Shown in pieces: positions 4,959 to 25,390 of a stretch of DNA of 64,000 nucleotides. The notes beneath the pieces were generated by a model, which was given only the letters and a program-made list of their open reading frames with translations, did not search any database and had not been told where the DNA came from. The translations under genes and the position numbers were made by a program. The DNA is from an uncultured Spirochaetota bacterium (lineage in GTDB: Bacteria; Spirochaetota; Spirochaetia; SZUA-6; CAVTHK01), in the NCBI GenBank assembly GCA_963734495.1, contig CAVTHK010000011.1:224001-288000 (forward strand), written 5' to 3'. Numbering within the stretch: the first letter of the stretch is position 1; each line of letters opens with the position of its first letter.

Positions 4959-5246
4959 CTACTCTCTCACCCCGTCCGACGGCTGCCCGCCGTCCCCGTC
5001 GTGCTTCTCGATCCTGTCGGGCTCAGCGCCCGCCTGCGCGGACGCCGCCTCGACCGGCGCGGAAGACTCGCGCTCGACCTCGCGTTCCACCTCGGAGAGC
5101 GATCTCGTGACCTCGTCCCTGAGGCTGCGGAGCTCCGCGAAGAACTTGCCGGCCTTGCGCAGCAGGGCAGGCAGGTCGCTCGGCCTGACAAAGATCAGCG
5201 CCACGATGACGATGACGACGATTTCCCAGGGCCCGACACCGAACAT
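4959..5246 (-). CDS. tatB: Twin-arginine translocase subunit TatB
   Basis: MFGVGPWEIVVIVIVALIFVRPSDLPALLRKAGK, a typical TatB N-terminus; lies between tatC and tatA. Confidence 0.88.
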   Translation of the reverse strand: MFGVGPWEIVVIVIVALIFVRPSDLPALLRKAGKFFAELRSLRDEVTRSLSEVEREVERESSAPVEAASAQAGAEPDRIEKHDGDGGQPSDGVRE

Positions 5247-7716: not shown

Positions 7717-7727
7717 GGAGTCGGGGC

Positions 7728-8676
7728 ATGAGCGACAGCGGCGCCCTTGAACTTACCGGGACCTTTCTGGACGAGATCTCGCACGACATCCCCCATCAGA
7801 ACTGGGGGCCTGTCGAGTGGGAGCACGACTTCGAGGCCATGCGCGCGATCGGGATCGACACCGTCATCCTCATCCGCTGCGGCCACCGGAAGTGGATGAC
7901 GTTCCCGTCGAAGGTGCTGGCCGACCGGGAGGGATGCTTCATGCCGCCCCTCGACCTGGTCGATCTCTTTCTCGACCTGGCGGCCAGGCACGGCATGGCG
8001 TTCTACTTCGGGACCTACGACTCGGGCCGCTACTGGCGCGACGGCGACTTCGAGCGCGAGGTCGAGCTGAACCTCGCCGTGGTCGACGAGGTGTGGGCGC
8101 GGTACGGGTCGCGGGCCGGCGTTCCGCGGGTGGTACCTCTCGCAGGAGGTCAGCCGCAGGACGCGCGGCATCGTCGACCTCTACGCGCGCATGGGCCGCC
8201 GCTGCAAGGAGATCTCCGGGAACCTGCCCACCCTGATCTCGCCGTACATCGACGGGATCAAGCAGGTCTCCTCTTTCGGGAGCGCCATCACGCGCGCCGA
8301 CGGCATCACGCCCGAGCAGCACGAAAAGGAATGGAATGAGATAATCGAAGGCATCCGCGGCGCGGTCGATATCGTGGCCTTTCAGGACGGCCACGTCGAG
8401 TTTGACCAGCTTGCGGGCTACCTCGAGCTGAACAAGCGGCTCGCCGAGCGGCACGGCCTGCGCTGTTGGACCAACGCCGAGACCTTCGACCGCGACATGC
8501 CGATCAAGTTCCTGCCGATCAAGTGGGAGAAGCTGCTGCTCAAGCTGCAGGCCGCCCGCGAGGCCGGGCTGGAGAAGGCGATCACCTTCGAGTTCTCCCA
8601 TTTCCTCAGCCCCCACTCCGCATACCCGCAGGCGGGGCATCTTTACAACCGGTACAAGGAGCACTTCGGTCTGTGA
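7728..8676 (+). CDS. DUF4434-like putative TIM-barrel glycoside hydrolase, frameshift near 8120
   Basis: GTFLDEISHDIPHQNWG...MRAIGIDTVILIRCG; GWYLSQE; AFQDG; NAETFDRDMPIKFLPI; ITFEFSHFLSP. Confidence 0.75.
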
Positions 8677-10485: not shown

Positions 10486-11613
10486 CTACCGCGAGTAGGG
10501 GTCAGCGGCGTCGCGGAGGCCGTCGCCGAGGAAGTTGAAGGCGAGCACGGCGACGATCACGAAGAGGACCGGAAGCAGGAGCCAGGGGTAGAGGGCGACG
10601 GTCCGCACGTTCTGCGCCTCCTGCAGCAGCACTCCCCAGCTGGTGACCGGCGGCCGCAAACCGACGCCCAGGAAGCTGAGCGCCGTTTCGGCGAGGATCA
10701 TCTGCGGAATTGAGAGCGTGATCGACACGATGATGTGGCTCAGGAACGACGGGAGGAGGTGCTTCACGATCACGGTCATCTCGCTCGCGCCCGAGATCAG
10801 GGCCGCCAGCGCGAACTCCTCCTCCCGGAGCGACAGCAGCTTCCCCCGGACCACCCGGGCGAGCCCGGTCCATCCGACGAACGAGAGGATGATCGTGATC
10901 CCGAAGTAGACCTTGAGCGGCGACCAGTGGGGAGGGAGAGCGGCGCTGAGCGCCATCCACAGCGGGATCGACGGGAACGACCTGAGGAGCTCGATGAGCC
11001 GCTGGATCACCACATCGGCGGCGCCGCCGTAGTATCCCGAGACGCCGCCGAGGATCAGCCCCATCAGGAGGCTGAGCAGGACCCCGATCAGGCCTATCGA
11101 CAGGGAGACTCTGGCGCCGTAAAGCACCCGGGAGAGCACATCGCGGCCCATCCGATCCGTTCCGAGCACGAAGAGCGTGCCTTCGCCTTCGACGCCGAAG
11201 AGGTGGACATCCCCTCCCCAGAGTCCCCAGAGCTTGTACTTTTCGCCGCGAGCAAGGAGCCGTACCCGAAACTGCCGGCTCGGGTCCTCGCGGAAGGTCT
11301 TGCGGAGCGTCTCCCTGTCGATCGCGGATTTCATGTCGTACACGAAGGGGCGCAGGTGAAATCCGCGGGAGTCGAAGAAGTGGATCCTCTGCGGAGGCGC
11401 GAACACGTACTTGATGTGCCTCGCCTCGGGATCGTACGGAGACACGAACTCGCAGAACACGCCGAGGAGGTACAGAAGCACGATGAGGAGGCCGCTCGCG
11501 ACGGCCGGCTTGTGCCTCGTGAACTTCCACCACATCAGCCTCCACTGGGAGGCGACGTAGTAGTCCTCATGAGCGTCGGGGCGCTGTTTGGCGGCCGCCG
11601 CGTGCTGCGCCAT
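10486..11613 (-). CDS. Peptide/oligosaccharide ABC permease (OppC/DppC-like)
   Basis: LGTDRMGRDVLSR, ETALSFLGVG, FNFLGDGLRDAADPY. Confidence 0.94.
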   Translation of the reverse strand: MAQHAAAAKQRPDAHEDYYVASQWRLMWWKFTRHKPAVASGLLIVLLYLLGVFCEFVSPYDPEARHIKYVFAPPQRIHFFDSRGFHLRPFVYDMKSAIDRETLRKTFREDPSRQFRVRLLARGEKYKLWGLWGGDVHLFGVEGEGTLFVLGTDRMGRDVLSRVLYGARVSLSIGLIGVLLSLLMGLILGGVSGYYGGAADVVIQRLIELLRSFPSIPLWMALSAALPPHWSPLKVYFGITIILSFVGWTGLARVVRGKLLSLREEEFALAALISGASEMTVIVKHLLPSFLSHIIVSITLSIPQMILAETALSFLGVGLRPPVTSWGVLLQEAQNVRTVALYPWLLLPVLFVIVAVLAFNFLGDGLRDAADPYSR

Positions 11614-11617
11614 CTCT

Positions 11618-12613
11618 TCATGCCCCTCTGCTTCCGAACCTGATCCGCGGGTCGGCCCATGCGAGCAGGATGTCCGACACGAGGGTGCCGAGCACCGTCA
11701 TGGCCGCGAGCATCATCACGAACGTTCCGGCCAGGTACATGTCCTGGCTCATCAGCGCGCGAAGGAGCAGGGGCCCGGTCGTCGGAAGGCTCAGCACCAC
11801 TTCAACGATCGTGGAGCCCGATATGAGCGCCGGCAGCAGCCAGGCGATGCTGCTGATCAGAGGGTTGATCGCGATGCGAACCGGGTACTTGAAGAGGAGC
11901 GTTCGTTCGTCCAGGCCCTTGGCCCTTGCGGTTACCACGTACTGTTTCCGCAGCTCGTCGAGGAGGTTCCCGCGCATGATGCGGATGAGGGACGCGGTCC
12001 CCGATGCGCCGACCACCGCGACGGGGATCCAGAGGTGCTTGAGCAGATCGAATACGCGCGCAAGCGTCCACGGAGCGTCGACGTATTCCGCCGAGAAGAG
12101 CCCGCCGACGCTCACGCCAAACGCGCTGTAGGCGACAAACATCAGGACCAGCGCGAGCAGGAGGCTCGGCGTGGCCAGGCCGATGAAACCGAGCAGCGCA
12201 AGGACATGGTCCGCGAGCGTGTACTGGTGGGTGGCCGAGTAGACGCCGATCGGGATCGAGACGACCCAGGTAAAGAGCAGCGTGAACAGCGAGATCACGA
12301 CAGTCAGCAGCAGCCGCTCGCCGATCAGCTCCGCCACCGGCTTATTCCACTCGAAGGACTGGCCGAAGTCGCCGCGGAAGAATCCCGTGATCCACTTGAA
12401 GTATTGCGTGTACAGCGGCGCTTCGAGCCCGTAGCGCGCCTTGAGGCTGGCGATCTGGTCCTCGCTGACGCTCTCGCCGCTCTGGGAGAGCTGCGCGATG
12501 TACGTGGTGAGATAGTCGCCGGGCGGAAGCTGCATGATGACGAATGACACGACCGAGATGAGAAAGAGCGTCGGAAGCATGAGGACAATCCGTCGAGCCA
12601 CAAACGAGAGCAT
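11618..12613 (-). CDS. Peptide/oligosaccharide ABC permease (OppB/DppB-like)
   Basis: PPGD, GDFGQSF, YVVTARAKGL, ADPRIR. Confidence 0.94.
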   Translation of the reverse strand: MLSFVARRIVLMLPTLFLISVVSFVIMQLPPGDYLTTYIAQLSQSGESVSEDQIASLKARYGLEAPLYTQYFKWITGFFRGDFGQSFEWNKPVAELIGERLLLTVVISLFTLLFTWVVSIPIGVYSATHQYTLADHVLALLGFIGLATPSLLLALVLMFVAYSAFGVSVGGLFSAEYVDAPWTLARVFDLLKHLWIPVAVVGASGTASLIRIMRGNLLDELRKQYVVTARAKGLDERTLLFKYPVRIAINPLISSIAWLLPALISGSTIVEVVLSLPTTGPLLLRALMSQDMYLAGTFVMMLAAMTVLGTLVSDILLAWADPRIRFGSRGA

Positions 12614-12807: not shown

Positions 12808-12837
12808 TTGACGGCGCGCTGGAGCGTCCCGTAGAAT
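12808..12837 (+). promoter_or_regulatory. Putative sigma70 promoter for the SBP/QueG-like operon
   Basis: TTGACG-18bp-TAGAAT, about 250 nt upstream of the start codon. Confidence 0.55.
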
Positions 12838-13092: not shown

Positions 13093-15042
13093 ATGGCTCA
13101 AAGGACGTGGTTCGTAGCGGTCTTTGTGGTAGCTGTGTCTTGCCTGTGCTTCGCCGGCCCGCAGAAGGAGCAGCCTGCGGCCGGAGCGAAACCTGCCGCA
13201 ACCCCAACGGAAAAGCTCGCCGAATCCCCTGCGCTCGCCGATCTGGTCAAGTCCAAGGCGATCCCCGCCGTCGCGCAGAGGCTCCCCGAGAATCCGCTTG
13301 TGGTCCAGCCGGTCGAAGCGGTCGGGCGCTACGGCGGCAACATGCGCATGGGGCTCCTCGGGCCCGCCGACAGGGCGACGCAGTTCTGGACGTTCCTGTA
13401 CGAGCCGCTCGTGCGCTGGAACCGTGCGGGAGGCGAGGTCGTCGAGAACATCGCGGAGAAATGGACCGTCTCGGATGACGGCCGCAAGTACACCTTCAAC
13501 CTTAGGAAAGGGATCAAGTGGTCGGACGGAGACCCGATGACGTCGGGCGACCTCATGTTCTGGTACCAGAAGATCCTGCTCAACAAGGAACTCACGCCCG
13601 TGGTCCCCGGCTGGCTCGCGAGCGGGAAGGAGCCCGTCAAAGTCACCGCGCCCGACCCGAATACCGTCGTGTTCGAGTTCGCGCAGCCGAACGTGCTGTT
13701 CCTCGAGAACATCGCCTTCAACGGAAGCGCGCCTGGCGCCAACATCGTGCGGCCCGAGCACTACCTCAAACAGTTCCACCCCGACTACGTGCCGCTCGAG
13801 ACCCTCAAGGCCAAGGCGAAGGAGCGCGGGTTCGACCAGTGGTACAAGCTCTTCCTCGACCGCGCCGACTTCCTGCAGAACGGCGACTATCCCGTGCTCA
13901 CGGCCTGGAAGGTCATGGGCCCGCTCACGGAGAACCAGCAGAAGCTCAAGCGCAATGCCTTCTACTGGAAGGTCGATCCGGCGGGCAAGCAGCTTCCCTA
14001 CATCGACGACATCACCGTGCAGGTCGTGGAGAACCCTGAAGTATTGATGATGAAGGTGATCTCCGGCGATCTCGACTTCGACTTCGGGCACCTCACGCTC
14101 CCCAACTACCCGATGCTCAAGGAGAACCAGCAGAAGGGCGGCTACCGCGTGCTCCTCTGGAAGAAGGTGATGGGGACGCAGCTCGAGTTCATGCCGAACC
14201 TCAACCACCAGGATGCGGCCAAGCGCGAGATCTTCAGCAACAAGAAGTTCCGCGAGGCGCTCTCGCTCGCGATCAACAAGGACGAGATCAACGAGCTCTG
14301 CTTCATGGGGCTCGCGGAGACCCGCAACGCGACGGTCGCGAACGCGTGCCCGTACTTCACGCCCGGCATCGACAAGCTCTTCACCGAGTACAACGTCGAC
14401 AAGGCCAACAGGATGCTCGACGAGATCGGGCTCAACAAGCGGGACAGGGACGGCTTCCGACTCCGGCCGGACGGGCAGCCGCTGATGCTCACGATCGAGT
14501 ACCCGCCGCACACCGAGTTCGGCCCGTGGCAGGACATCGTGCACCTCGTGGGCGGCTACTGGAACAAGGTCGGAGTCCGCACGGCGGACAAGTCCATCGA
14601 CCGCTCGCTGTACGAGATCCGCACGCAGACGACGGAGATCGACTTCGTGCTCTGGACCTGGGGCCGCGGCATGCACCCGCTGATCGATCCCGCGTTCGTG
14701 TTCCCGATGAGGGCGGGCCACTTTACCGGCGCGCCCACGTACGCGATGTGGTACTCGACGCGGGGCAAGAGCGGCGAGAAGCCTTCGGGCGACATCCTCA
14801 AGGCGATGGACCTCTACGACAAGTTCACCGTGACGGTGAACCCCCAGGAGAGGCTCGCAGTCGGCAAGGAGATCATCAAGATCGCGGCGGAGAGCTGCTG
14901 GGGCATCCCTACGGTCGGGCTGGCGCCCGCGGTCGAAGTGGTCAAGGAGACCATGGGCAACGTGCCCAAGGAGAGCCTGCACGAGTGGGTTCTCATGCAG
15001 TTCGCTCACGTGAACCCGGAGCAGTTCTACTTCAAGAAATAG
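13093..15042 (+). CDS. ABC substrate-binding protein, family 5 (Opp/Dpp-type, oligosaccharide-binding-like subgroup)
   Basis: Signal peptide; RLPENPLVVQP, GRYGG, YTFNLRKGIKWSDG, RNAFYWKVDPAGKQLPYID, FREALSLAINK, PEQFYFK; AAGGAG RBS. Confidence 0.92.
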   Translation: MAQRTWFVAVFVVAVSCLCFAGPQKEQPAAGAKPAATPTEKLAESPALADLVKSKAIPAVAQRLPENPLVVQPVEAVGRYGGNMRMGLLGPADRATQFWTFLYEPLVRWNRAGGEVVENIAEKWTVSDDGRKYTFNLRKGIKWSDGDPMTSGDLMFWYQKILLNKELTPVVPGWLASGKEPVKVTAPDPNTVVFEFAQPNVLFLENIAFNGSAPGANIVRPEHYLKQFHPDYVPLETLKAKAKERGFDQWYKLFLDRADFLQNGDYPVLTAWKVMGPLTENQQKLKRNAFYWKVDPAGKQLPYIDDITVQVVENPEVLMMKVISGDLDFDFGHLTLPNYPMLKENQQKGGYRVLLWKKVMGTQLEFMPNLNHQDAAKREIFSNKKFREALSLAINKDEINELCFMGLAETRNATVANACPYFTPGIDKLFTEYNVDKANRMLDEIGLNKRDRDGFRLRPDGQPLMLTIEYPPHTEFGPWQDIVHLVGGYWNKVGVRTADKSIDRSLYEIRTQTTEIDFVLWTWGRGMHPLIDPAFVFPMRAGHFTGAPTYAMWYSTRGKSGEKPSGDILKAMDLYDKFTVTVNPQERLAVGKEIIKIAAESCWGIPTVGLAPAVEVVKETMGNVPKESLHEWVLMQFAHVNPEQFYFKK

Positions 15043-15054
15043 GGGATGCGGCAG

Positions 15055-15082
15055 CGAGGGGAGGGATCTGTCCCTCCCCTCG
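15055..15082 (+). other. 12-bp stem-loop without U tract after the SBP gene (likely mRNA stabiliser permitting read-through)
   Basis: CGAGGGGAGGGA-TCTG-TCCCTCCCCTCG. Confidence 0.6.
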
Positions 15083-15121
15083 GCCGCCGCAAGCGCGATC
15101 GCACCGAAAAGGAGGCTGCTG

Positions 15122-15898
15122 ATGACGCGTGCTGCGCTCGAGGGGTTCGTGCACGATCTCGGGCTCGATCTCGTGGGCGTTGCGCCGATCGAGCGCTTTG
15201 CGGGCGTTGCGCCGGAGAGGCATCCCGCAACGATCTTTCCCGAAGCGAAGACCGTCGTTGTGATCGGGCTGGAGATCCCTCGCGGGACCTTCAGAGGAAT
15301 AGAAGAAGGAACCCTCTGGACTCGGGCGCCGCGGCAGCTCCCGCCCAAACAGACCTATCAGGTCGCGCGTTTCCTCGAGCAGGACGGGTGGGAGGCGGTG
15401 CCCGTTTCACCGCTCGCTCCCGAGCGGTGGCCCGACGGCGTCCCGGTGGCGGAGGGCAAGGTTCCGCCTAACGTGTCGCCGTCGCTCGAGAACGCGGCGG
15501 TTTCCGCCGGCCTCGGCGAGATCGGGCTGTGCGGGGTGTTCCTCACGCCGCAATTCGGGCCGCGCCAGTCGCTGGCGATGCTGATCACCGACGCCCCGCT
15601 CGAGCCGGGCCCCGCGCACGCGGGGACCATCTGCGACGGGGCGAGCTGCGCCGCGTGCGCGGCGGCTTGCCCACTCGGGGCCATCGACGTCAAGACTGCG
15701 ACGGTGAGCAGGAGAGCCTGCCGCCTCTGTCCCAACGGCGTGTTCGCCGACGAGACCTCGAAGCAGGCGGTGCCGAACTTCCTCACGGCCGCCTGCGTGC
15801 GCGCGTGCATCGCGCACCTCGAGGAAGCGGGCAAGCTCACCAAGCGCTACAACAGCCCGTTCCGCAAGCGCAAGCCGTGGGCCCAGGGCCTGGTCTAG
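15122..15898 (+). CDS. QueG/reductive dehalogenase-like cobamide Fe-S protein, paralog 1
   Basis: GLDLVGVA..ERF, AGLGEIG...FLTPQFGPRQ...ITDAPLEP; Cys motifs CDGASCAACAAACP, CRLC, CVRAC. Confidence 0.8.
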   Translation: MTRAALEGFVHDLGLDLVGVAPIERFAGVAPERHPATIFPEAKTVVVIGLEIPRGTFRGIEEGTLWTRAPRQLPPKQTYQVARFLEQDGWEAVPVSPLAPERWPDGVPVAEGKVPPNVSPSLENAAVSAGLGEIGLCGVFLTPQFGPRQSLAMLITDAPLEPGPAHAGTICDGASCAACAAACPLGAIDVKTATVSRRACRLCPNGVFADETSKQAVPNFLTAACVRACIAHLEEAGKLTKRYNSPFRKRKPWAQGLV

Positions 15899-15908
15899 AG
15901 GAGGCCGC

Positions 15909-16886
15909 ATGCTCACCAGCAAGATGGTCAAGGAGTTGGCGGTCAAGGCGGGCTTCGACCTGGCAGGCGTTGCGAACATCGAGCGCTTCGACGATGCTCC
16001 CCCGGAGATGCACCCCTGCACGATCTTCCCCGAGACGAAGAGCGTCGTGGTCATGGCCACGCGCATACTTCGCGGCTCCTACCGCGGCGTGGCGGAGGGG
16101 ACGGAGTGGTCCACGTACTGGATCTTCGGCTACGGCGCGGGGATCTACGGCATCCTCAACGAGGCGACGCGCCAGGTGCAGAGCTACATCGAGTCTTTCG
16201 GGTGGGAGGCGGTCCAGGCGCCGGGCAGCGCCACGCTTCCCGAGATGGGCCCGCTGCGGGAGCCCGTCGCTCCCGGTAAGCTCGCGAGCGACGTCACCGT
16301 TTCGTTCCGCCTCGCTGCCGCTGCCGCCGGCCTGGGCGAGCTCGGGCATGCGAAGGTCTTTCTCACGCCGCAGTTCGGCCCGAGGCAGCGGTTCGCCGTG
16401 GTCCTCACCGACGCGAAGCTCGAGCCGGATCCCCTCTTCGAAGGCACGCTGTGCGACGACTGCCGCAAGTGCGTCTCCGCGTGCCCCGGCGGCGCGATCG
16501 GCAAGAGCCGGACGGTTTCGACCGAGATCGACGGCCGCAAGTTCAAGTGGGCGCCTCTCGACTACGGCAAGTGCAAGCTCACCCACTGGGGGTTCAACAA
16601 GGCGGCTTCGCCCTTTGTCGCCAGGGACCTGCCGGGGCTCGTCCTGCCGATCGGCAGCCAGCGCATGAAGTGGAGAGAGGCGTACGATTTCGGGTGGACG
16701 CTCGCGAACCGGGTCGGATACATCCAGGTCGTCTCCAGGGGCATCACGGAGATCGAGCAGCCTGGCCGCCCCGGATCGATCTGCGCGGCCCGAGGCTGCA
16801 TCCAGGCGTGCGACGCCTGCCTCTCGGCTTCGGGCGTCATCCCGGGGAAACGAAGCGCGACGAGGGCATCGAGGAGGGCGAATTAA
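15909..16886 (+). CDS. QueG/reductive dehalogenase-like cobamide Fe-S protein, paralog 2
   Basis: GFDLAGVA..ERF, AGLGELG..KVFLTPQFGPRQRF...TDAKLEPDP; CDDCRKCVSACP, GKC, CAARGCIQAC. Confidence 0.82.
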   Translation: MLTSKMVKELAVKAGFDLAGVANIERFDDAPPEMHPCTIFPETKSVVVMATRILRGSYRGVAEGTEWSTYWIFGYGAGIYGILNEATRQVQSYIESFGWEAVQAPGSATLPEMGPLREPVAPGKLASDVTVSFRLAAAAAGLGELGHAKVFLTPQFGPRQRFAVVLTDAKLEPDPLFEGTLCDDCRKCVSACPGGAIGKSRTVSTEIDGRKFKWAPLDYGKCKLTHWGFNKAASPFVARDLPGLVLPIGSQRMKWREAYDFGWTLANRVGYIQVVSRGITEIEQPGRPGSICAARGCIQACDACLSASGVIPGKRSATRASRRAN

Positions 16887-16887
16887 G

Positions 16888-17778
16888 ATGAAGGGCGGCA
16901 GTCTCGCCGACGACGTCAAGAAGCTGGCCCGCGAGCTGGGCGCGGACCTCGTGGGGGTCGCGTCCGTGGATCGCTTCCAAGGGGCCCCGGACGAATACCA
17001 CCCCGACAGCCTGCTCCCGGGAACCATGAGCGTCATCAGCATTGCGATCCGCATCCTCCGGGGCGTGCAGATCCCGCAGCAGAGCCTGAAGCAGAACTAC
17101 CAGTACCAGATCTTCGGCTACGGGTGGCTGAGCCACATCCGGCTCAACTGGATCGCCTTCGAGGTCGCGCGCTTTCTGGAGGACCAGGGCCACGTGGCCC
17201 TGCCGTTCCCCTCGTTCTGCGACGACCAGTACGGCGACAAACATCCGTCATGGTTCCGGCGCACGAAGCCTTCGATCTCCAATCGGCACGCCGCGGTCGC
17301 CGCGGGTATCGCTCGGCTGGGATGGAGCAATCTCGCGATGACGCGGCAGTTCGGCACGCGGCAGCGGTTCGTGACGATCATGACGACCGCGGAGATCGGC
17401 CCCGATCCGCTCATCGAAGAGGATCTCTGCGACAAGTGCATGATCTGTGTGAAGGCGTGCCCCGGCAAGGCCATCTCGGGTTCCGAGGCGGTCAAGTACA
17501 GCCTGGCGGGCCTCGCGGTCGAGACGGGCGCGCTGAACAGGCCGAAGTGCTCTTGGTTCCACGATGGAATCGCGACGGAGACGTTCGGCACCGTGCCGCT
17601 CGCCCAGCCGCCTGACGTGACGTGGGAGCAGTTCCGGGAGGCGAGGCGGATCGTGGACTACGCGTCGCCGAGCCAGTTCGCGGGCAGAATCACCACGTTC
17701 ACGACCGGCGGCCATTGCGGCTTGTGCATCCTGTCGTGTCCCAAGGGCACGCAGTGGCGGCCGGGGAGGGCCCCATGA
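16888..17778 (+). CDS. QueG/reductive dehalogenase-like cobamide Fe-S protein, paralog 3
   Basis: LGADLVGVASVDRF, RHAAVAAGIARLG..MTRQFGTRQRF; CDKCMICVKACP, PKC, CGLCILSCP. Confidence 0.82.
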   Translation: MKGGSLADDVKKLARELGADLVGVASVDRFQGAPDEYHPDSLLPGTMSVISIAIRILRGVQIPQQSLKQNYQYQIFGYGWLSHIRLNWIAFEVARFLEDQGHVALPFPSFCDDQYGDKHPSWFRRTKPSISNRHAAVAAGIARLGWSNLAMTRQFGTRQRFVTIMTTAEIGPDPLIEEDLCDKCMICVKACPGKAISGSEAVKYSLAGLAVETGALNRPKCSWFHDGIATETFGTVPLAQPPDVTWEQFREARRIVDYASPSQFAGRITTFTTGGHCGLCILSCPKGTQWRPGRAP

Positions 17779-18725
17779 TCAGCTCAAAAGAGCTCAAGGC
17801 TGTCGCGAAAACCCACGGCGCGGACCTCGTCGGCATCGCATCGATGGACAGGTTCGAAGGCGCTCCCGTGCAGATGGACCCGCGACGCATCTTCCCGGAT
17901 GCGAGGGCGCTGATCGTCTGCGCCTGCCGCATCCCGCGTGGCGTGCTCATCGGGATCGAGGAAGGCACGTACTTCAACTCCTACTCGATGATGGGATACG
18001 CGGGCATCAACTTCGTTCGCATGCCGATGGTGCTCTGGAGCGTGACGAACTACCTGGAGGACGACGGGTACGACGCGCTCCCGATGGCGAACCATTTCCC
18101 CTGGTCCGCCATCTCGCTCGACAACGGGCGGATGCGCAAGTGGTGGAGCCGTCCCGTGGCTCCCGACAAGCCCGCGCCCGACGTCAGCGTGCACTTCCGG
18201 ATCGCCGCGTTTGCGGCGGGCCTCGGGGAAATCGGCTATAGCAAGGTTTTTCTCACGCCGCAGTTCGGCCCGCGGCAGCGTTTCGGGCTGATCCTCACGA
18301 ACGCCCCGCTGGAGCCCGACCCGCTGTTCGACGGCCGCATCTGCGACCGCTGCATGCTGTGCGCGCGCAACTGCACCGGCGACGCGATCAGCACGACGGA
18401 GACGGTCAAGGTCGCGGTCGCCGGCAGGCAGCTCGAGTGGGGCAAGCTGGACGAGGCCCGCTGCCGGATGGGGTTCCGCGGCGGCAATCCCGAGGCGAAC
18501 CCTTTCTTCGTGGACCAGCCGGAGCACATCTTCTGGCACGGCGAGGCCATCGAAGGGGCGGCGGGCTGCATCAGGGCCTGCATGCTCCACCTCGAGGAGA
18601 AGGGCGTCGTTGGAAACAAATTCCAGGAGCCGTTCCGGCGCCGCCCGCCGTGGTCGCTTCCGCGGGACTGGAAAAAGGACATCGCGCCCACGGCGCCGCG
18701 GCTGGAGCCACGAGAGGATCGTTGA
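17775..18725 (+). CDS. QueG/reductive dehalogenase-like cobamide Fe-S protein, paralog 4
   Basis: GADLVGIASMDRF, AGLGEIGYSKVFLTPQFGPRQRF..TNAPLEPDP; CDRCMLCARNCT, ARC, GCIRAC; ATGA overlap with paralog 3. Confidence 0.82.
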   Translation: MISSKELKAVAKTHGADLVGIASMDRFEGAPVQMDPRRIFPDARALIVCACRIPRGVLIGIEEGTYFNSYSMMGYAGINFVRMPMVLWSVTNYLEDDGYDALPMANHFPWSAISLDNGRMRKWWSRPVAPDKPAPDVSVHFRIAAFAAGLGEIGYSKVFLTPQFGPRQRFGLILTNAPLEPDPLFDGRICDRCMLCARNCTGDAISTTETVKVAVAGRQLEWGKLDEARCRMGFRGGNPEANPFFVDQPEHIFWHGEAIEGAAGCIRACMLHLEEKGVVGNKFQEPFRRRPPWSLPRDWKKDIAPTAPRLEPREDR

Positions 18726-18729
18726 GCCG

Positions 18730-19764
18730 ATGAGGTTCTCGGTCGGCTACCGCGTGATGCCCGGCGATCCCGACTTCTTTGCGGACATCGTCGAAGACTA
18801 CAGGGAGCGCGTCGACGAGGTGTACTTCGCCTGGCCGGAAGATCCTTCGGGGAGAACGCCCGTGCCGGCCAGCGCGCTCTCGCAGCTTCTCGAGGAGATC
18901 GCGCACATCGCGTCGCTGGGCGTCGGGCTGAACCTGCTCTTCAACGCTTCCTGCTACGGAGACGCGGCCCTTTCCGCGTCGCTGCGTGATCACGTCGTCG
19001 AGCTGGTGTCCCGCCTCTCCGAGGCGGGCCTGACGGCGGTGACAACGATGTCTCCGGTCATCGCCCGGGCGGTCAGGGCCGCGTTCCCGCACCTCGACGT
19101 GAGGGCTTCGGTGAACATGCGCCTGGGCACGGTCAGGGCAATGGAATACGTGTCGGGCCTGTTCGACAGCTACAACGTTCAGCGGGAGTACAACCGCAGA
19201 CCCGACCGCCTTTCGGAGCTCGGCAAGTGGGCGGGAGAAAACGGCAAGAAGCTCCACGTGCTCGTCAACAGCGGATGCCTGAGCTTCTGCTCCTTCCAGA
19301 CCTTTCACGACAACGTCGTGGCGCACGAAGCCGGGGTCAACCGCAACCGCAACGTCGCGGCCGCGCCGACTCTCTGCCGGGAGCTCTACTCCGACCGCGG
19401 GCGGTGGCCCGCCTTTCTGCAGGGATCGTGGATACGGCCGGAGGACATCGCGAAGCACAGGGCCTTCTTCGACGGCGGCTACAAGATCGCCGCCCGGATG
19501 CACGACAATCCGAGGATGGTGATCGACGCCTACGCGAAGGGGAGGTACTACGGGAACCTCCTGGACCTCATGGAGCCGGGCTTCGGGCCGGTCTTCGCTC
19601 CCCACGTGGTGGACAACCGCCGCTTCCCATCGGACTGGTTTTCGTCTACAACAGGATGTTCGTCGGACTGCGCGCGCTGCACCTACTGCGCGGACACGCT
19701 CGAGCGAGTGCTCGTCGACGTGGACACTCTCGCCGGCGCGCGGCGCGAGGAGGCGGTGACGTAG
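18730..19764 (+). CDS. Peptidase U32-family Fe-S protein (putative O2-independent hydroxylase-like)
   Basis: EVYFA, LFNASC, RASVN, QREYNR, LVNSGCLSFC, TLC, WIRPEDI, YKIAAR, GNLLDL; C-terminal CSSDCARCTYC. Confidence 0.7.
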   Translation: MRFSVGYRVMPGDPDFFADIVEDYRERVDEVYFAWPEDPSGRTPVPASALSQLLEEIAHIASLGVGLNLLFNASCYGDAALSASLRDHVVELVSRLSEAGLTAVTTMSPVIARAVRAAFPHLDVRASVNMRLGTVRAMEYVSGLFDSYNVQREYNRRPDRLSELGKWAGENGKKLHVLVNSGCLSFCSFQTFHDNVVAHEAGVNRNRNVAAAPTLCRELYSDRGRWPAFLQGSWIRPEDIAKHRAFFDGGYKIAARMHDNPRMVIDAYAKGRYYGNLLDLMEPGFGPVFAPHVVDNRRFPSDWFSSTTGCSSDCARCTYCADTLERVLVDVDTLAGARREEAVT

Positions 19765-19767
19765 CCT

Positions 19768-20001
19768 ATGCCGATCTACGAGTTCCGCTGCCGGGGATGC
19801 GGAGACGAGTTCGAGCTGCTCCTCAGGCGCGATGAGACAGCGGTCAAGTGCCCCGAGTGCTCGAGCGCGGACGTGGTGCGGAAGTTCAGCGCCTTTGCCG
19901 TCAAGTCCGGCGCTTCCAGGAATGACCTGTCGATGAGCTCGAGCGCGGGCGGCAGCTCCTGCGCCGGCTGCTCAGGCGGCCACTGCTCGACCTGTCACTG
20001 A
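19768..20001 (+). CDS. FmdB-family zinc-ribbon protein with extra C-terminal Cys cluster
   Basis: MPIYEFRCRGCG..FE..CPECSS..VVRKFSAF; C-term CAGCSGGHCSTCH. Confidence 0.88.
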   Translation: MPIYEFRCRGCGDEFELLLRRDETAVKCPECSSADVVRKFSAFAVKSGASRNDLSMSSSAGGSSCAGCSGGHCSTCH

Positions 20002-20028: not shown

Positions 20029-20361
20029 CTACACTACGTACTCCGGTCTCATGGGCGTGAAGCACTCGATGACCTCGGAGTCTTCGAGGACCTCCGCGCT
20101 GTGGGTCTCCATCGAATCGAAGATGTAGCTGGCGCCCGGCTTCATGACCGCGCTCGAGCCGTCGCCGAACGTGAAGCGCACCCGCCCGCTCATGAGGTAT
20201 CCGACCTGCACCGCGGCGTGATTATGGGGCGGCACTTTGGCGCCCTTCTTCATCTTGAAATGACACAGCATGGTCTCGGCGTTGTAGGACATGGTCTTCC
20301 GGAAGATCCCGGGAAAGACTTCCACCTGCTTCAGCGCCTCGACGTTCGTGCTCCCGCCCAC
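20029..20361 (-). CDS. Cupin domain protein (KdgF-like)
   Basis: VPPHNHAAVQVGYLMSG...THSAEVLEDSEVIECFTPMRPEY; GTG start after GGAGG. Confidence 0.8.
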   Translation of the reverse strand: MGGSTNVEALKQVEVFPGIFRKTMSYNAETMLCHFKMKKGAKVPPHNHAAVQVGYLMSGRVRFTFGDGSSAVMKPGASYIFDSMETHSAEVLEDSEVIECFTPMRPEYVV

Positions 20362-20416
20362 CTCTCGTCCTCCCTTCCGATGCGACCTCGCGGCTTGCAG
20401 GCGCCTGTGCGCCGCC

Positions 20417-21472
20417 TCACGCGATCGCCTTGCCGGTCCTCTGCTGGCGAACCAGGTCCAGGACCTGCGTCCACCCTTTGATGAAGCTGTCGCGGAACTT
20501 GACCACGGGACCGTAGCCCGCGTACTGACTCCTGGCGAGCCCGTCCTCGAGGTAGGCGCAGGCGAAGTCCGGCAGTCGCGCCAGCAGCTCGTCCACGAGC
20601 GCGCGGGGCTCCGGCGCATCGATGCGGCGGACGACGGGGCCGTCCTGCTCGATCAGCTTGTCCGCGGTTCCCTTCCAGTTGATCGTGATGTCGACCTCTC
20701 CCCCGACGAAGTCGGTAAAGTGGGCGAGCCCGCGCGCACCGCCGCCGAGCAGGATCCCCGGATAGCCCCGCTCCTTCATCAGGTGATACTGCTTGCGGGC
20801 GACGACCGCGCCGGCGATCGCGAGCGCGTCCGGCGAGACGGCGATGCGTTTTCGCTCCGCCGTCTCCTTGAGGTATTCGTCGAAGATGCCCGTGATGTGC
20901 GTCACGAAGAACGCGGGGCTGCTGCCGCTTTCGCGCGCGGCCCGCCGGTAGAGCTCGCACGCAGCGACGGCCTGCGCGATCGCCATGATCTCGGTCGCGA
21001 TGACGGGAACGTTCCGCCGCAGCAGCGCGTCCATCGCCGCGAGCCCGGCCTCGGTGGTCGGAATCTTGGCGATGAAGTTGGCGCCCAGCTTCGCGTGGCG
21101 CAGCGCCTCGTTTACGATGCCATCGGCGTCGGTGTCTTTCAGCGGGTTGCCCTGAATCGAGACGAACCCCTCGCGCCGGGGAGCGGCCTCGTGCAGCTCG
21201 AGGAACTCGGCCATGATGCGCCGGGCGAGACGCTGCTGCACCAGGTCGACCGCTTCCTGATCGTCGTCGGCCTCCGAGACCGCCCGGGCGACCGCCCGCG
21301 TCACCTCGGCCCCGTCGGATTCCGCTGTCAGCAGCTTCGAGGCGTACGACGGGTTGGTCGTGCAAGCGATAGCGCCTGCCGCAATCGACTTGCGCGCCTC
21401 TTCCACGGTCGGGTTGTTGATCCACAGCCGCGTCGGCGTCTGTTCCGCTACCCGCTGAAAGTAGCCCTTCAT
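20417..21472 (-). CDS. Transaldolase-family protein (atypical)
   Basis: CTTNPSY, FVSIQ, FIAKIPTTEAG (Schiff-base Lys), LLGGGARG; ATGA overlap with transketolase gene. Confidence 0.8.
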   Translation of the reverse strand: MKGYFQRVAEQTPTRLWINNPTVEEARKSIAAGAIACTTNPSYASKLLTAESDGAEVTRAVARAVSEADDDQEAVDLVQQRLARRIMAEFLELHEAAPRREGFVSIQGNPLKDTDADGIVNEALRHAKLGANFIAKIPTTEAGLAAMDALLRRNVPVIATEIMAIAQAVAACELYRRAARESGSSPAFFVTHITGIFDEYLKETAERKRIAVSPDALAIAGAVVARKQYHLMKERGYPGILLGGGARGLAHFTDFVGGEVDITINWKGTADKLIEQDGPVVRRIDAPEPRALVDELLARLPDFACAYLEDGLARSQYAGYGPVVKFRDSFIKGWTQVLDLVRQQRTGKAIA

Positions 21473-22455
21473 TTTCGCCCCTTCTTGCGGGCATGCGCTT
21501 CGCGCATGGCGGCCACGATGTCGCCGACCCCCATCGCGTACCTGTCGAGCAGTGCCTCGGCTTCGCCGGACTCGGGGAAGGTGTCCTTGAGGCCGACGCG
21601 CGCGAGCGGCGTCGGGCAGAGGTCCGCGGCCGCTTCCGCGATCGCGCTTCCGAGCCCTCCGATGATGTTGTGGTCCTCGACGGTCACGGCGGCGCCGGCG
21701 CGCGCGAGGATGTCCGCCACCCCCGGGGCGTCCAGCGGCTTCAGCGTGTGCACCTCGACCACCGTCGCCTTGAGCTCGTCCTTGATGCTCTCGGCCGCGG
21801 CCAGCGCGCGCTTGAGGATGGGCCCGCACGCGAACACCGCCACATCGCGCCCGTATTCCCGCATCACGCGGATCCTGCCGAATTCGAACGGCACGCCGGC
21901 GTCGAAGATCACGGGTTCCCTTCCGCTTCCGAGCCGGAGGAACCCCGGGCCGGGGCGCCTGGCGAGCGCGAGAGTCGCCTGCCTGGTTTCCGCCGCGTCG
22001 GCGGGCACGATCACGTCGATGCCGGGAATGCTTCGCAGGATCCCGAGGTCTTCGAAGAACTGGTGCGTCACGCCCTCGCGCTCGCCGCCGTAGAGCCCGC
22101 CGTTGAGGCCGACGAACTTGACCCGCAGCCCCGGGTAGGCGACGAACGTCCGCACCTGCTCGCACGCCCTCATCGTGATGAAGCCGGAGTACGTGCCGAC
22201 GAACGGCAGGACCCCGCACGATGCCAGGCCCGCGGCGACGGCCACCGCGCTCTGCTCGGCGATGCCGATCTCGAACAGGCGGGCGGGGTACGCATCGGCG
22301 AACCTGGTCGCGCGCAGCGCCTTGAGCGAGTCCGCGGACACCAGGGCAACCGAGGGGTCGGCGGCGGCCAGCTCCATCAGCGCGTCGACGAACGCTTCGC
22401 GGGTGCTTGCCATCTTCGCGGCGGCGGCGGGTTCCGTGGTCTTTCGCTCAGCCAT
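21469..22455 (-). CDS. Transketolase, C-terminal (pyrimidine-binding) subunit
   Basis: EIGIAEQ, RACEQVR, EGVTHQ, TLKPLD, VEDHNIIGGLG. Confidence 0.92.
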   Translation of the reverse strand: MAERKTTEPAAAAKMASTREAFVDALMELAAADPSVALVSADSLKALRATRFADAYPARLFEIGIAEQSAVAVAAGLASCGVLPFVGTYSGFITMRACEQVRTFVAYPGLRVKFVGLNGGLYGGEREGVTHQFFEDLGILRSIPGIDVIVPADAAETRQATLALARRPGPGFLRLGSGREPVIFDAGVPFEFGRIRVMREYGRDVAVFACGPILKRALAAAESIKDELKATVVEVHTLKPLDAPGVADILARAGAAVTVEDHNIIGGLGSAIAEAAADLCPTPLARVGLKDTFPESGEAEALLDRYAMGVGDIVAAMREAHARKKGRK

Positions 22456-23275
22456 TGGCCGCCTCCAGACACTCGATCGCCCTGGCCAGCTCCTCTTTCG
22501 TCGGCACCCGCTTGTGCCAGCTGTTGTCCCGCTCCATGAACGGCACGCCCTTGCCCTTGATGGTGCGCGCCACGATCACCGACGGCCGCGGGTCCGCGCG
22601 CGCCGCATCGACGGCGTTCAGGATCGCGGCGACGTCGTGTCCGTCGATCTCCTGCGTGTGCCACCCGAACGAGGCGAACTTCGCGGCGATGTCCCGCATG
22701 CCGCTGACCTCTTCGATGAGGCCGCCGCTCTGGTAGCCGTTGTAGTCGACGAACGCGATCAGCCGGCCGAGCTTCTGGTTGGCCGCGGACTGGGCCGCCT
22801 CCCACACGATTCCTTCGTTGAGCTCGCCGTCGCCCGTCACGACGAACACGTGGTAGTCCTGCTTCTGCATCCGGCCTGCCAGCGCCATCCCGGTGCCGAC
22901 CGCGAGCCCGTGCCCCAGCGAGCCGGTCGTCATGTCGATGCCGGGCGTCTTGCCCATGACCGGGTGTCCCTGCAGGATCGACCCCAGGCTGCGCAGCGTC
23001 GGCAGGAGGTCAGGGGAGAAGTAGCCCCTCCGTGCGAGCGCCGCGTACACGACGGGGCAGGAGTGCCCCTTTGACAGGATGAAGCGATCCCGCAGCGGCC
23101 AGCCCGGGTTGGCGGGATCGATCCGCAGCACCTTGAAGTACAGCACCGCCACGATGTCGGCGGCCGACAGAGCCGGTCCCGGATGCCCGTCGCCCGCGAG
23201 GTGCACCATCGTGAGCACGTCCCTGCGCAGCAGGTTGCCCGTTCGGGCAAGCTCCCTGTTGGATATCTGGTTCAT
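22448..23275 (-). CDS. Transketolase, N-terminal (TPP-binding) subunit
   Basis: GHPG, RDRFILSKGH, LQGHP, TGSLGHG, GDGELNEG, TIKGKGV. Confidence 0.94.
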   Translation of the reverse strand: MNQISNRELARTGNLLRRDVLTMVHLAGDGHPGPALSAADIVAVLYFKVLRIDPANPGWPLRDRFILSKGHSCPVVYAALARRGYFSPDLLPTLRSLGSILQGHPVMGKTPGIDMTTGSLGHGLAVGTGMALAGRMQKQDYHVFVVTGDGELNEGIVWEAAQSAANQKLGRLIAFVDYNGYQSGGLIEEVSGMRDIAAKFASFGWHTQEIDGHDVAAILNAVDAARADPRPSVIVARTIKGKGVPFMERDNSWHKRVPTKEELARAIECLEAANG

Positions 23276-23341: not shown

Positions 23342-25390
23342 TCAATCCAGCGGCAGCCAGATCGCCATCTCGGTTGACCCGCTGCGGTTGTCCCAGCAGA
23401 AGTACGGGATCATCCTGACTTTGGCCCGCCGCGGCGGCGCGCCGCTCACCTCGCGGTAGAGGTCGGTCCCCCAGTCCCTGTGCTCGTACTTGAGGGCCTC
23501 CCCTTCGAGCGCGATCACAGGCGCTCCCGCGATCGCATGCTTTGCGGGCTGGAGCTCGATGTCCCGCGGAATCGCCAGGTCGAAGATGTCGCCGCCGTCG
23601 GCGCGCATGTCCGCAGACTCGATGCAGTAGACCACGGGGCCGCGGAGCACGGCGACCTGGCCGCGGGTCTCCTCGAGGAGGTGATGGCCTTCGACCAGGC
23701 GCGTCCTCATGGGCAGGGAAAGCTCGACGACGTCTCCTGGCGCCCATTGCCTCCGCAGCTCGAAGAACCGCCCGGCCTCGGGGCCCGCCTTGTGGAGCTG
23801 CTTGCCCGCGCGGGACTTGACGACGAGCGACGCGGCATCGGCCCACTGCGGGATGCGCAGCATGAGCGCGAACTCGGTCGCCTTGGCAACGTTCACGGTG
23901 ATCGCGATTTCGCCGCTCCACGGGTATTCGGTCTTCTGCTCGAGGGTAACCTCGGTGCCGTTCACGAGCGAACCCTTCCAGGTGTTGGCGCCGTACAGGA
24001 CGGCCCAGACCGCGTCGTCCGTCACGCAGTAGGCGTAGCAGTTGGTCTCCGCGATCGTGCGCGCGATGTTGGGGGGGCAGCAGTAGCAGGCGATGTGGCC
24101 CTGCCTCTCTGTCGACCACCGCATCGGGAAAGGCACGCCCTTGGATCTCTTGAGCGCATTCGAGTAGAAGTACCGCGTGCCGTCCAGGCTGATCGTGGAC
24201 AGGATTCCGTTGATCAGAGTGCTCTCCAGCAGGTCCGCGTACTTGGCGTCGCCGGAGATCTGGAGCATCCGCCAGTTCCAAAGAGCGCTTCCGATGGTCG
24301 CGCAGCTTTCGTTGTAACCGGTCAGGTTGGGCAGCTCGTACTCCCTGCCGTACGACTGCTGCACGAAGTGAACGGCGTTGGGTCTCGGGGCCTGTTTGTC
24401 CTCCCTCTCGGGGTGAGGCTGATCGCCCTTGGCCATCAGCTCGTGGTGCAGGAATGTGCCATGAGTGCTGGGCGACGTTCCCGTGTTCAGCGCTCCGGTG
24501 GCGCCCGTCACGTAGAGCTTGTGCGAGACCAGGTCGTCCCAGATCGCGTGCAGCGCCGAGAGCAGGCTCTCGTCCCCGCTCTCCGCGTAGACGTCAGCCG
24601 CGCCCGCGTAGAGGTAGTTCGCCCTGACGCCGTGTCCGACCGCCTTGGTCTGCTGGCGGAACGGCAAGCGTTCCTGGTTCATATCCGTGCCGTTCTCGAC
24701 CAGGTCGCGCATATCGATGAACTTCTTTCCGAGCTCCAGGTAGCGGGAATCGCCCGTCGTTCGGTACATCTCGATGATGCCCATGTAGTGTGAAGGGCAG
24801 ATATCGAAACGCGCCAGGTCCGGCGTCGGTTTGGCGAACGCCTTGCACAGGAAGTCACTCAGCTTGATCGCGATGTCCAGCAATGTCCGCTTTCCGGTGA
24901 TCCTGTAGTGCAGGCAGGCCGCAGTCATCAGATGCCCGCAGTTGTACGTCTCGAACTCGATCGCCCGTTCGAACGGCCTGGCCTCCGCGCGGCCCCGCAC
25001 CTTGTCGAGCGCGAGCCGCGTGTATATGTAGCCGTCCCCCTGCTGGACCTTGCCGATCACCGAGATGACGGTGTCGATCAGTCTTTCGAGCTCCGAATCG
25101 CGGCTGATGTTGTACACTGCAATGGCGGCTTCCAGCCACTTGTAGAGGTCACCATCGGAGAATCCATATCCCTCGTGCTGATGTCCTTCTTTCTCCCCGA
25201 CGGCCCTGAGGAAGTTCCCGTAGTGCGGGTTCTGCATCTCCTGCCAGAGGTGCTTGATGGTGGCACTGGCGCAGGCGTCGAACCGCTCGGCCCACAGCCC
25301 CGACGTCCAGCGGACCGAGTCGACGTCGACGCTCTTGAGCTTCATGTGCGGAGTCTGCAGGTTGTTCGTGATGCCCTTGCCCTTTTTCAC
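23342..25390 (-). CDS. Glycoside hydrolase family 127 (beta-L-arabinofuranosidase/aceric acid hydrolase-like)
   Basis: DGDLYKWLEA, ETYNCGHL, GHGVRANYLY, YNESCA, CYCCPPN, LRIPQWA, RGPVVYC, IPYFCWDNR. Confidence 0.92.
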   Translation of the reverse strand: MKKGKGITNNLQTPHMKLKSVDVDSVRWTSGLWAERFDACASATIKHLWQEMQNPHYGNFLRAVGEKEGHQHEGYGFSDGDLYKWLEAAIAVYNISRDSELERLIDTVISVIGKVQQGDGYIYTRLALDKVRGRAEARPFERAIEFETYNCGHLMTAACLHYRITGKRTLLDIAIKLSDFLCKAFAKPTPDLARFDICPSHYMGIIEMYRTTGDSRYLELGKKFIDMRDLVENGTDMNQERLPFRQQTKAVGHGVRANYLYAGAADVYAESGDESLLSALHAIWDDLVSHKLYVTGATGALNTGTSPSTHGTFLHHELMAKGDQPHPEREDKQAPRPNAVHFVQQSYGREYELPNLTGYNESCATIGSALWNWRMLQISGDAKYADLLESTLINGILSTISLDGTRYFYSNALKRSKGVPFPMRWSTERQGHIACYCCPPNIARTIAETNCYAYCVTDDAVWAVLYGANTWKGSLVNGTEVTLEQKTEYPWSGEIAITVNVAKATEFALMLRIPQWADAASLVVKSRAGKQLHKAGPEAGRFFELRRQWAPGDVVELSLPMRTRLVEGHHLLEETRGQVAVLRGPVVYCIESADMRADGGDIFDLAIPRDIELQPAKHAIAGAPVIALEGEALKYEHRDWGTDLYREVSGAPPRRAKVRMIPYFCWDNRSGSTEMAIWLPLD

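Follow-up and report, generated by a model that had tools for sequence, protein, structure and literature searches.

What do four tandem genes related to both the reductive dehalogenases (RdhA) and the epoxyqueuosine reductase QueG do in the genome of an uncultured Spirochaetota bacterium? The question arises from a stretch of 64,000 nucleotides (nt) of contig CAVTHK010000011.1, hereafter the window, whose plus strand carries at positions 13093–20001 the gene of a family-5 solute-binding protein (SBP5), the four paralogs R1 to R4, a gene for a U32-like protein (U32L) and a gene for an FmdB-family zinc ribbon (Table 1). A sequence-only reading of this locus had proposed a new anaerobic pathway, in which the whole set forms a cobamide and iron–sulfur (Fe-S) redox system fed by an ABC importer. 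We find that the R family is real and its genes intact, that it is widespread and unstudied and represents a variant of a known enzyme class, and that the units which recur elsewhere are two gene pairs. The pathway as first proposed is plausible in outline and over-specified.

The layout of the locus proved to be exactly as had been described. R1–R4 are four consecutive intact genes, and the gaps along the order R1, R2, R3, R4, U32L and FmdB are 10, 1, −4, 4 and 3 nt. All seven open reading frames (ORFs) from SBP5 to FmdB are intact, with a GC content at third codon positions (GC3) of 0.86–0.91, and the start codons of R4 and U32L are backed by homologues, which agree with them in length and N-terminus.

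Identity to R1 is 28–43% within R1–R4. Pfam returned only Fer4-type fragments for these proteins, and no Pfam dehalogenase domain matched at E ≤0.1. RDH (TIGR02486) was the best-scoring named family, with 42.9, 50.1, 39.3 and 52.1 bits for R1 to R4, no more than a third of its cut-off of 160.35, which all four missed. Against QueG (TIGR00276) they reached 23.8, 32.2, 38.6 and 24.4 bits, all below the cut-off of 200. When a profile of 55 family members was compared with the PDB, it matched PceA (8q4h, 2.5e-18; 4uqu, 4.6e-14), NpRdhA (2e-11) and QueG (5d08, 1.3e-9). R1–R4 are thus members of the RdhA/QueG superfamily that stand outside both named families. The family is large: 2697 of the 4207 candidates scored with R4 matched at E ≤0.001, so that it comprises thousands of members in at least five named phyla, without a Pfam or NCBIfam model of its own.

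The predicted fold agrees with this placement. The AlphaFold model of R4 (pLDDT 90, pTM 0.90) combines the corrinoid core and the ferredoxin fold that are expected of an RdhA, and Foldseek matched it to a reductive dehalogenase at 7.6e-11. In VIA-align comparisons, the model aligned with PceA (4ur3) at Z 17.4 (root-mean-square deviation (rmsd) 2.8, 214 residues aligned), with QueG (5d6s) at Z 17.1 and with NpRdhA at Z 16.5, followed by the B12 chaperones MMACHC (9.8) and CblD (7.7), while FMN nitroreductases stayed at or below 5.5. Overall, the fold with two [4Fe-4S] clusters is common to R4 and the RdhA proteins (PceA of Sulfurospirillum and Desulfitobacterium, 4uqu and 8q4h; NpRdhA, 4ras and 6zy0) at Z 16.3–17.4, and the same core and ferredoxin module are found in QueG (5d6s, 5d08) at Z 16.2–17.1. 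Since the matches above Z 7 are PceA, QueG, NpRdhA, MMACHC and CblD, every structural relative of R4 in that range binds cobalamin. As judged from the model, R4 has the class-III cobalamin fold, about equally far from RdhA and from QueG.

The R module is most like catabolic RdhA or QueG, and differs from each in several respects. RdhA proteins measure 450–700 amino acids (aa), whereas the R proteins measure about 300 aa; R1–R4, with 258–325 aa, have no fused reductase domain of the catabolic RdhA type. No Tat motif was found in R1–R4, whose N-termini lead directly into the conserved domain, and the short intergenic gaps leave no room for an RdhB-like gene. Respiratory Rdh was ruled out accordingly (39–52 bits against 160, no Tat, no RdhB). 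QueG is cytoplasmic and small, like the R proteins, but ends in a helical-repeat domain that binds tRNA (PMC4646009); this domain is missing from R1–R4, and the R4 model covers only residues 1–251 of QueG. We searched for the QueG residues D100-Y101-H102 and the catalytic D130 in the numbering of the S. thermophilus enzyme. The string DYH occurs in none of R1–R4, and at the D130 column R4 has Asn, while R1–R3 carry Pro, Gly or Ser. Housekeeping QueG was likewise ruled out (24–39 bits against 200, no DYH, no C-terminal domain). The R family further differs from QueG in being multi-copy, regulated and patchily distributed. The earlier statements that these proteins are related to RdhA and QueG, and that they are neither respiratory RdhA nor QueG, therefore hold.

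The family alignment comprised 66 rows, drawn from the window and from 47 related loci. The N-terminal and core motifs quoted in the sequence-only reading are invariant among R1–R4 (G14, D16, L17, G19, A21, R25 and F26; A129, G130, G135, T142, Q144, F145, G146, R148 and Q149), as is a CxxCxxCxxxC block, and seven Cys are conserved without exception across the 66 rows. R1–R3 have at least eight Cys in the Fe-S module, eight of which are kept in R3. Across the R4-, R1- and R2-types, little or no variation is seen in the stretch R52-x2-R55-G56...G60-x-E62-E63-G64-T65, in Tyr70 and Tyr75, in E95-D96-x-G98 or in F164-G-P-R-Q-R169. The resulting signature, RxxRG...EEGT...Y...Y, is present in 48 of the 48 R4-type rows and sets the family apart from RdhA. 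On the other hand, the R family has, like RdhA, a GADLVG N-terminal motif and an AGLGE.G...TPEFGP..R core, and its most conserved block is the RdhA core motif AGLGEIG...TPxFGPRQR, which includes the column of PceA Arg305.

This column belongs to the catalytic pair that we looked for in the R family, namely Tyr246 and Arg305 of PceA, or Tyr426 and Lys488 of NpRdhA. In the 55-member profile alignment, Arg169 of R4 aligns with PceA Arg305 and NpRdhA Lys488, and Asn106 of R4 aligns with PceA Asn272. The PceA numbering is that of PMC4646009 and PMC5500849, and a count of residues placed a Tyr at position 246, in agreement with it. Arg169 is retained in 47 of 48 R4-type, 6 of 7 R1-type and 9 of 9 R2-type rows, whereas QueG, according to PMC4646009, has no equivalent of Arg305, and its Asp130 aligns with PceA Asn272. 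At these two columns, the R family looks RdhA-like in the alignment.

The 47 related loci, taken from a scan with one genome per species, are spread over Verrucomicrobiota (including Kiritimatiellia, Lentisphaeria and Victivallales), Armatimonadota, Omnitrophota, Planctomycetota, Bacteroidota (Prolixibacteraceae) and Bacillota; Clostridia are among them as well. In the tree, an R4-type clade (48 rows) is separate from a clade of the R1-type, the R2-type and R3 (18 rows). Two or more R-family matches are present at 15 of the 47 loci. An R2-type gene directly follows the R1-type gene in all seven R1-type rows. U32L lies directly 3′ of the best R4-type match at 18 of the 47 loci, or at 15 of the 37 with at least 1300 nt downstream, and the spacing between the two genes is −24 to +3 nt in eight loci of several phyla. 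No FmdB gene adjoins the module at any of the 47 loci (best tblastn E 0.12, none adjoining U32L), and SBP5 is likewise found at none, related permeases being present only at one locus (L011). Because the R1-type to R2-type order is constant, the R4-type to U32L order is frequent, and FmdB and SBP5 never recur, what recurs are two pairs, R1-type with R2-type and R4-type with U32L. In the window both have been assembled locally into the six-gene set, with FmdB and SBP5 as local additions, and FmdB was dropped as a component of the module. Arrays of paralogs together with a U32-like gene are thus indeed found in further phyla, while the full composition is not conserved as a unit.

Five of the 47 loci (L003, L006, L022, L026 and L047) carry two-module R fusions of about 740–810 aa. 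Such fusions also make up most of 65 long relatives, which are mostly 740–830 aa in length. The second module is more divergent in these five loci. A Pfam match to QueG_DUF1730 was obtained for the one fusion scanned (L022) and for 12 long relatives, but not for single-module proteins.

U32L was described by the earlier reading as a Cys-rich U32-family protein, which its structure bears out and its sequence does not. Against Pfam PF01136 it scored 13.8 bits (E 0.036), short of the gathering cut-off of 22.4; NCBIfam gave no match, and its family profile found nothing significant among PDB sequences (best E 0.27). By contrast, its model (pLDDT 93) matched 5d88 (Mk0906) in Foldseek at 8.6e-9 (next chain 8.5e-6), and in VIA-align at Z 19.5 (rmsd 3.0, 224 of 247 residues aligned; next chain Z 12.8). 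In an alignment of 42 rows, C75, C183, C187 and C216 are invariant, and C310, C314, C317 and C320 nearly so, the latter forming a C-terminal C310-x3-C-x2-C-x2-C320 motif. Most U32 families bind a [4Fe-4S] cluster through a CX6CX15CX3/4C motif (PMC6747719). The spacing in U32L is C-x107-C-x3-C-x28-C, which is also unlike the UbiU and UbiV motifs. Compared with the characterized U32 Fe-S proteins (UbiU/UbiV, TrhP and RlhA) and Mk0906, U32L shares the TIM-barrel fold, four invariant Cys in the barrel region and an occurrence in anaerobes, but differs in its sub-threshold Pfam score, its Cys spacing and its additional C-terminal four-Cys motif. Its partners are RdhA-like proteins in sugar operons, whereas theirs are UbiT or RNA substrates. 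We regard U32L, on the strength of the model, as a U32 relative by fold only and as a probable Fe-S TIM barrel. It has many homologues (2492 of 8000 candidates scored at E ≤0.001). FmdB is assigned without difficulty, with 59 bits against a cut-off of 31.3 for TIGR02605 and 53.2 against 34.4 for PF09723. A predicted complex of R4 with U32L, computed with a separate alignment for each chain, scored 0.00 against a mark of 0.32 and gives no evidence either way.

The neighborhood of the R genes suggests the nature of the substrate. IclR regulators lie beside R loci in nine cases. Other recurrent neighbors are AraC and LacI regulators, SSF symporters, and sugar or Opp-type ABC systems; enzymes such as PF12831 FAD oxidoreductases, Gfo/Idh/MocA proteins, an HpcH aldolase, a 2-hydroxyacid dehydrogenase and a pyridoxal phosphate (PLP) enzyme; and, among proteins acting on glycans, GH28, GH141-like and CBM9-like proteins. 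No dehalogenation or aromatic-degradation genes were seen in the annotated loci. The window itself is a glycan-use island: it also holds three further sugar-binding SBPs with permeases, GH127 genes, DUF4434, a cupin, a transaldolase, a split transketolase and a GntR regulator, and a GDSL esterase gene lies upstream on the minus strand, beside the two Opp-type permeases. The context therefore points to plant-glycan or uronate-type sugars, rather than to the halogenated, epoxide or nucleoside substrates considered at the outset. In two Armatimonadota loci without U32L (L034, 3625–10984; L037, 3598–10984), the genes immediately 5′ of the R1-R2-R4 types encode a 2-oxoacid:ferredoxin oxidoreductase, in three genes, and a tandem universal-stress protein, which makes the oxidoreductase a candidate electron donor.

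SBP5 fits such a setting. It scored 204.7 bits against PF00496 (cut-off 32.4), and its nearest solved chains, both aligned over their full lengths, are 5ipw (4.8e-129) and SPH1118 (7ver, 8.8e-85), the latter a pectin-binding protein (PMC9314435). SBP5 thus resembles a pectin-binding protein, and an oligosaccharide ligand of this type is predicted from sequence. A role in peptide or nickel import was considered and rejected. Of the family-5 importer that had been proposed, SBP5 and two divergent permease genes (10486–12613, minus strand) are in place. However, a scan for Walker-A plus signature motifs had its sole hits at about 400–1230 on the minus strand and none beside SBP5, so the importer is locally incomplete, and SBP5 has no adjoining OppD/F ATPase genes.

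Taken as a whole, these data can be read as a cytoplasmic set of corrinoid/Fe-S reductases, arranged in pairs and acting on a glycan-derived metabolite, a reading on which our judgment is evenly divided. For the corrinoid itself, we lean with moderate confidence toward its binding by the R proteins. R1–R4 would then be cytoplasmic members of the class-III cobalamin/[4Fe-4S] reductases, in a third branch beside RdhA and QueG. Each catalytic R protein would hold a base-off corrinoid in a nitroreductase-like core, next to a ferredoxin module with two clusters. These would be fed by reduced ferredoxin, produced for instance when pyruvate or another 2-oxoacid is oxidized; low-potential electrons would pass from the clusters to cobalt, and Co(I) would reductively cleave a C–O or C–X bond of a small molecule. 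The substrate may arise in the cytoplasm from an imported acidic plant oligosaccharide of the pectin type. The substrate of QueG, an epoxy-cyclopentanediol, is a sugar-like epoxide, and the fold is therefore able to reduce C–O bonds.

In this scheme R1 and R2 would form one pair, while R4 would associate either with the degenerate R3 or with a second copy of R4. The PceA dimer and the NpRdhA pseudo-dimer serve as models for such pairing, R3 then corresponding to the vestigial core of NpRdhA; the R gene pairs and the two-module fusions echo this dimer logic. U32L would be a frequent but optional partner of the R4-type, and may add a second, O2-independent step on the same substrate. The characterized U32 enzymes are Fe-S hydroxylases (PMC6747719), and prephenate is the oxygen donor of those in ubiquinone synthesis (PMC10990095). 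A more specific version, which we put forward tentatively and consider doubtful, is that the R proteins and U32L form an O2-independent route for a sugar derivative of the plant cell wall (pectin or rhamnogalacturonan type), in which Co(I) cleaves a C–O bond and the U32-type Fe-S barrel adds or moves oxygen without O2. Candidate targets would be an ether, an ester, an epoxide or an activated hydroxyl on a sugar or sugar acid.

Several observations weigh against this reading. The equivalent of PceA Tyr246 cannot be placed in the R family, as it falls in a low-confidence stretch with an indel, and Tyr70 and Tyr75 of the family sit 5–10 residues from its position. R4 and all R4-type rows have seven invariant Cys, not the eight of RdhA. 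Window R1 lacks eight residues that include both conserved Tyr, and window R3 has lost G60, E62, E63, G64, T65, D136, G151 and P166. The tree end branches of R1, R2 and R3 are long (1.21, 1.25 and 1.86, against 0.17 for R4 and a median of 0.12). Because of these branches, and of the loss of the Tyr residues in R1 and of EEGT in R3, some copies may be non-catalytic or decaying; R4 is the well-kept copy, and R1–R3 are fast-evolving yet intact copies with their Fe-S Cys in place. The pairing with U32L is also incomplete: of the 37 loci for which 1300 nt or more of 3′ sequence are available, 22 have no U32L beside the R4-type, and in two of five genomes that have an R4-type gene but no adjacent U32L, none was found anywhere. 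Conversely, among six loci found with U32L as the seed, an R gene is adjacent in two (one being the window) and in the same gene string in one, and none was seen in the 13–19 kb fetched around the other three. Finally, an Rfam scan of the window gave no matches, so there is no cobalamin riboswitch in it, and cobS and cobQ were not found in the source genome (5.38 Mb, 83% complete). This genome has nine matches to the R family profile, one U32L and, in favor of a cobamide supply, one cobalamin riboswitch. Given that cobS and cobQ were not found, the bacterium probably imports its cobamides.

The alternative that best survives is that the R proteins have lost the corrinoid and serve as Fe-S electron carriers or redox partners for U32L and for the FAD and Gfo/Idh/MocA oxidoreductases, with the RdhA-like core kept as a scaffold. 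The unaligned catalytic Tyr and the signature residues missing from window R1 and R3 would suit this role. So would the R genes that adjoin PF12831 FAD oxidoreductases, Gfo/Idh/MocA enzymes and a 2-oxoacid:ferredoxin oxidoreductase, and the function in electron transfer that has been proposed for the Fe-S clusters of U32 hydroxylases (PMC6747719). However, conservation peaks in the RdhA core, including the Arg305 column, and not in the ferredoxin part alone, and the signature kept in every R4-type row suggests an active site. Moreover, simple ferredoxins would suffice for electron transfer, and the close structural relatives all bind B12. We consider a purely electron-carrying role unlikely.

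It is also conceivable that no joint system exists, and that the paralogs and U32L are independent enzymes for different substrates, gathered in glycan islands, where their adjacency reflects operon packing. This would explain why the six-gene set as a whole is unconserved, why the R4-type and U32L are each also found alone, and why at least three more R-like genes occur elsewhere in the genome, two of them directly after sugar ABC transporter genes. It would not readily explain the R1-type to R2-type order without exception, the tight R4-type/U32L spacing across several phyla, the existence of two-module fusions, or the minimal gaps in the window, and we regard it as quite unlikely.

The R proteins might instead be true cytoplasmic reductive dehalogenases of the catabolic type, acting on natural organohalogens. 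RDH is their best-scoring named family, PceA is the best PDB match by both sequence and fold, Asn and Arg occupy the columns of PceA Asn272 and Arg305, and cytosolic RdhA-like proteins of 300–1000 aa were taken as candidate dehalogenases in a cold-seep metagenome survey (PMC12219181). The scores of R1–R4 nevertheless remain far below the RDH cut-off, without any Pfam dehalogenase match, and no NAD(P)H reductase is fused or adjacent, unlike in NpRdhA. The annotated loci encode sugar uptake and glycoside hydrolases and no dehalogenation or aromatic-degradation gene, and four to six paralogs share one operon with a U32 barrel. A dehalogenase function is therefore very improbable. Least probable is an RNA-modification set, in which tRNA or rRNA nucleosides, the targets of QueG, TrhP and RlhA, would also be those of the QueG-like reductases and U32L: both families have RNA-modifying relatives (QueG; U32 RlhA and TrhP, PMC6747719) and no canonical QueG exceeds the cut-off in the 83%-complete genome, but the R proteins lack DYH and an adequate QueG score, their operons hold transporters and IclR, AraC or LacI regulators, the patchy spread (among 301 genomes sampled in the phylum, 3 have a strong U32L match) is unlike that of a housekeeping function, and two other QueG-like ORFs with 68–70 bits are present in the genome.

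These two ORFs are the best matches to the QueG model in the source genome (C11:413065–413526, L061; C1:206089–206499, L062; 70.3 and 68.5 bits against 200), and its QueG is either divergent or missing from the assembly. The further R-like genes include two of about 320–330 aa, at C9:326158–326859 (L058) and C2:49365–50051 (L059), which are the ones directly 3′ of sugar ABC transporter genes, and one of 255 aa at C11:674176–674943 (L060). An ORF that resembles an ADP-ribosylglycohydrolase, a label from sequence reading only, follows one of the former two. Among the 65 long relatives, one metagenomic protein of 687 aa (P0252) carries, fused to an R4-type module (55% identical), a tandem RidA-like domain, which matches PF01042 with 48.5 bits and the FkbO/Hyg5-like_N chorismatase model with 21.1, below its cut-off of 27. 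No relatives of this domain were found in the window or the related loci examined, and P0252 is a lead toward chorismate- or prephenate-type chemistry, not evidence for it. Eight sequencing runs that contain the source genome are listed, all of DNA (shares ≤0.22) and none of RNA.

Table 1. Features of the R1–R4 locus, in window coordinates
Feature	Coordinates	Strand	Basis or remark
OppC-type ABC permease	10486..11613	−	Pfam BPD_transp_1 3.2e-27, OppC_N 8e-14; divergent from SBP5 gene
OppB-type ABC permease	11618..12613	−	Pfam BPD_transp_1 4.1e-25, BPD_transp_1_N 3.4e-11
Promoter-like site, TTGACG-18-TAGAAT	12808..12837	+	5′ of SBP5 gene; consensus match only
SBP5, family-5 solute-binding protein, long oligosaccharide-binding type, 649 aa	13093..15042	+	Pfam SBP_bac_5 3e-60
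GC-rich perfect hairpin 3′ of SBP5 stop	15055..15082	+	11–12 bp, loop TCTG, no T run
R1, R1-type RdhA/QueG-like Fe-S protein, 258 aa	15122..15898	+	TIGR02486 5.5e-11, 42.9 bits; alignment; tree
R2, R2-type paralog, 325 aa	15909..16886	+	TIGR02486 3.4e-13; tree, gene order
R3, divergent paralog, 296 aa	16888..17778	+	TIGR02486 match; tree end branch 1.86
R4, R4-type paralog, 316 aa, best conserved of four	17775..18725	+	Family hidden Markov model, fold model, alignment
U32L, distant U32-superfamily TIM barrel, 344 aa	18730..19764	+	Predicted structure; Cys pattern
FmdB-family zinc ribbon, 77 aa, Cys-rich tail	19768..20001	+	Zn_ribbon_8 3e-14, TIGR02605 3.5e-16

Around the cluster, three promoter-like sites were found, against 0.6 expected in shuffled sequences. 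The 79-nt spacer between SBP5 and R1 has a predicted fold of −45 kcal/mol (z −3.56), and a strong AAGGAGG lies 6 nt 5′ of the R1 start. The hairpin in this spacer is perfect, and since, as had been noted, no U tract follows, it is not an intrinsic terminator; it probably serves in mRNA stabilization or read-through attenuation. No terminator-like site was found on the plus strand between 12500 and 20700.

Elsewhere in the window, the DUF4434 gene at 7188–8676 (plus strand) appears to be divided over two frames, with ORF 7188–8339 matching profile positions 1–121 and ORF 8191–8676 positions 155–283, by a frameshift that is real or due to assembly error. A complete GH127 gene lies at 23342–25390 (minus strand), and two overlapping ORFs at 29574–31277 and 31142–33001 (plus strand) give weak partial matches to the GH127 catalytic domain (profile positions 55–230 and 182–333); either a single gene with a frameshift or a pair of divergent GH127-like genes could account for them. 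At 20029–23275 (minus strand), the cupin, the transaldolase-like gene and the split transketolase converge on the end of the cluster. The transketolase is encoded by separate genes for its N-terminal and its pyrimidine/C-terminal halves, and split transketolases occur in branched or rare sugar routes. TatA/B and TatC genes are found at 4959–6034 (minus strand), between two sugar-transport operons.

Literature searches, which included a preprint on Kiritimatiellia synteny and the cold-seep RdhA survey but not supplementary tables, found no published description of the R/U32L module, in line with the earlier view that the pathway is undescribed. To our knowledge, class-III cobalamin enzymes carry out only two reactions, dehalogenation and epoxyqueuosine reduction. 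The R family occurs in the sugar-utilization operons of anaerobic glycan degraders, rather than in settings of dehalogenation or RNA modification. If the R proteins bind a corrinoid, they would point to a third reaction type for this class and to an unrecognized cobamide demand in glycan degraders of wetlands, sediments and the gut, and it would be unwise to infer a potential for dehalogenation from each RdhA-like gene of a metagenome. The recurrent pairing of the R4-type with U32L provides a new setting for U32 chemistry. Should the O2-independent sugar route prove true, it would be the first role in carbohydrate catabolism for the R and U32 families, and would give fermenting glycan degraders a ferredoxin-fed electron sink.

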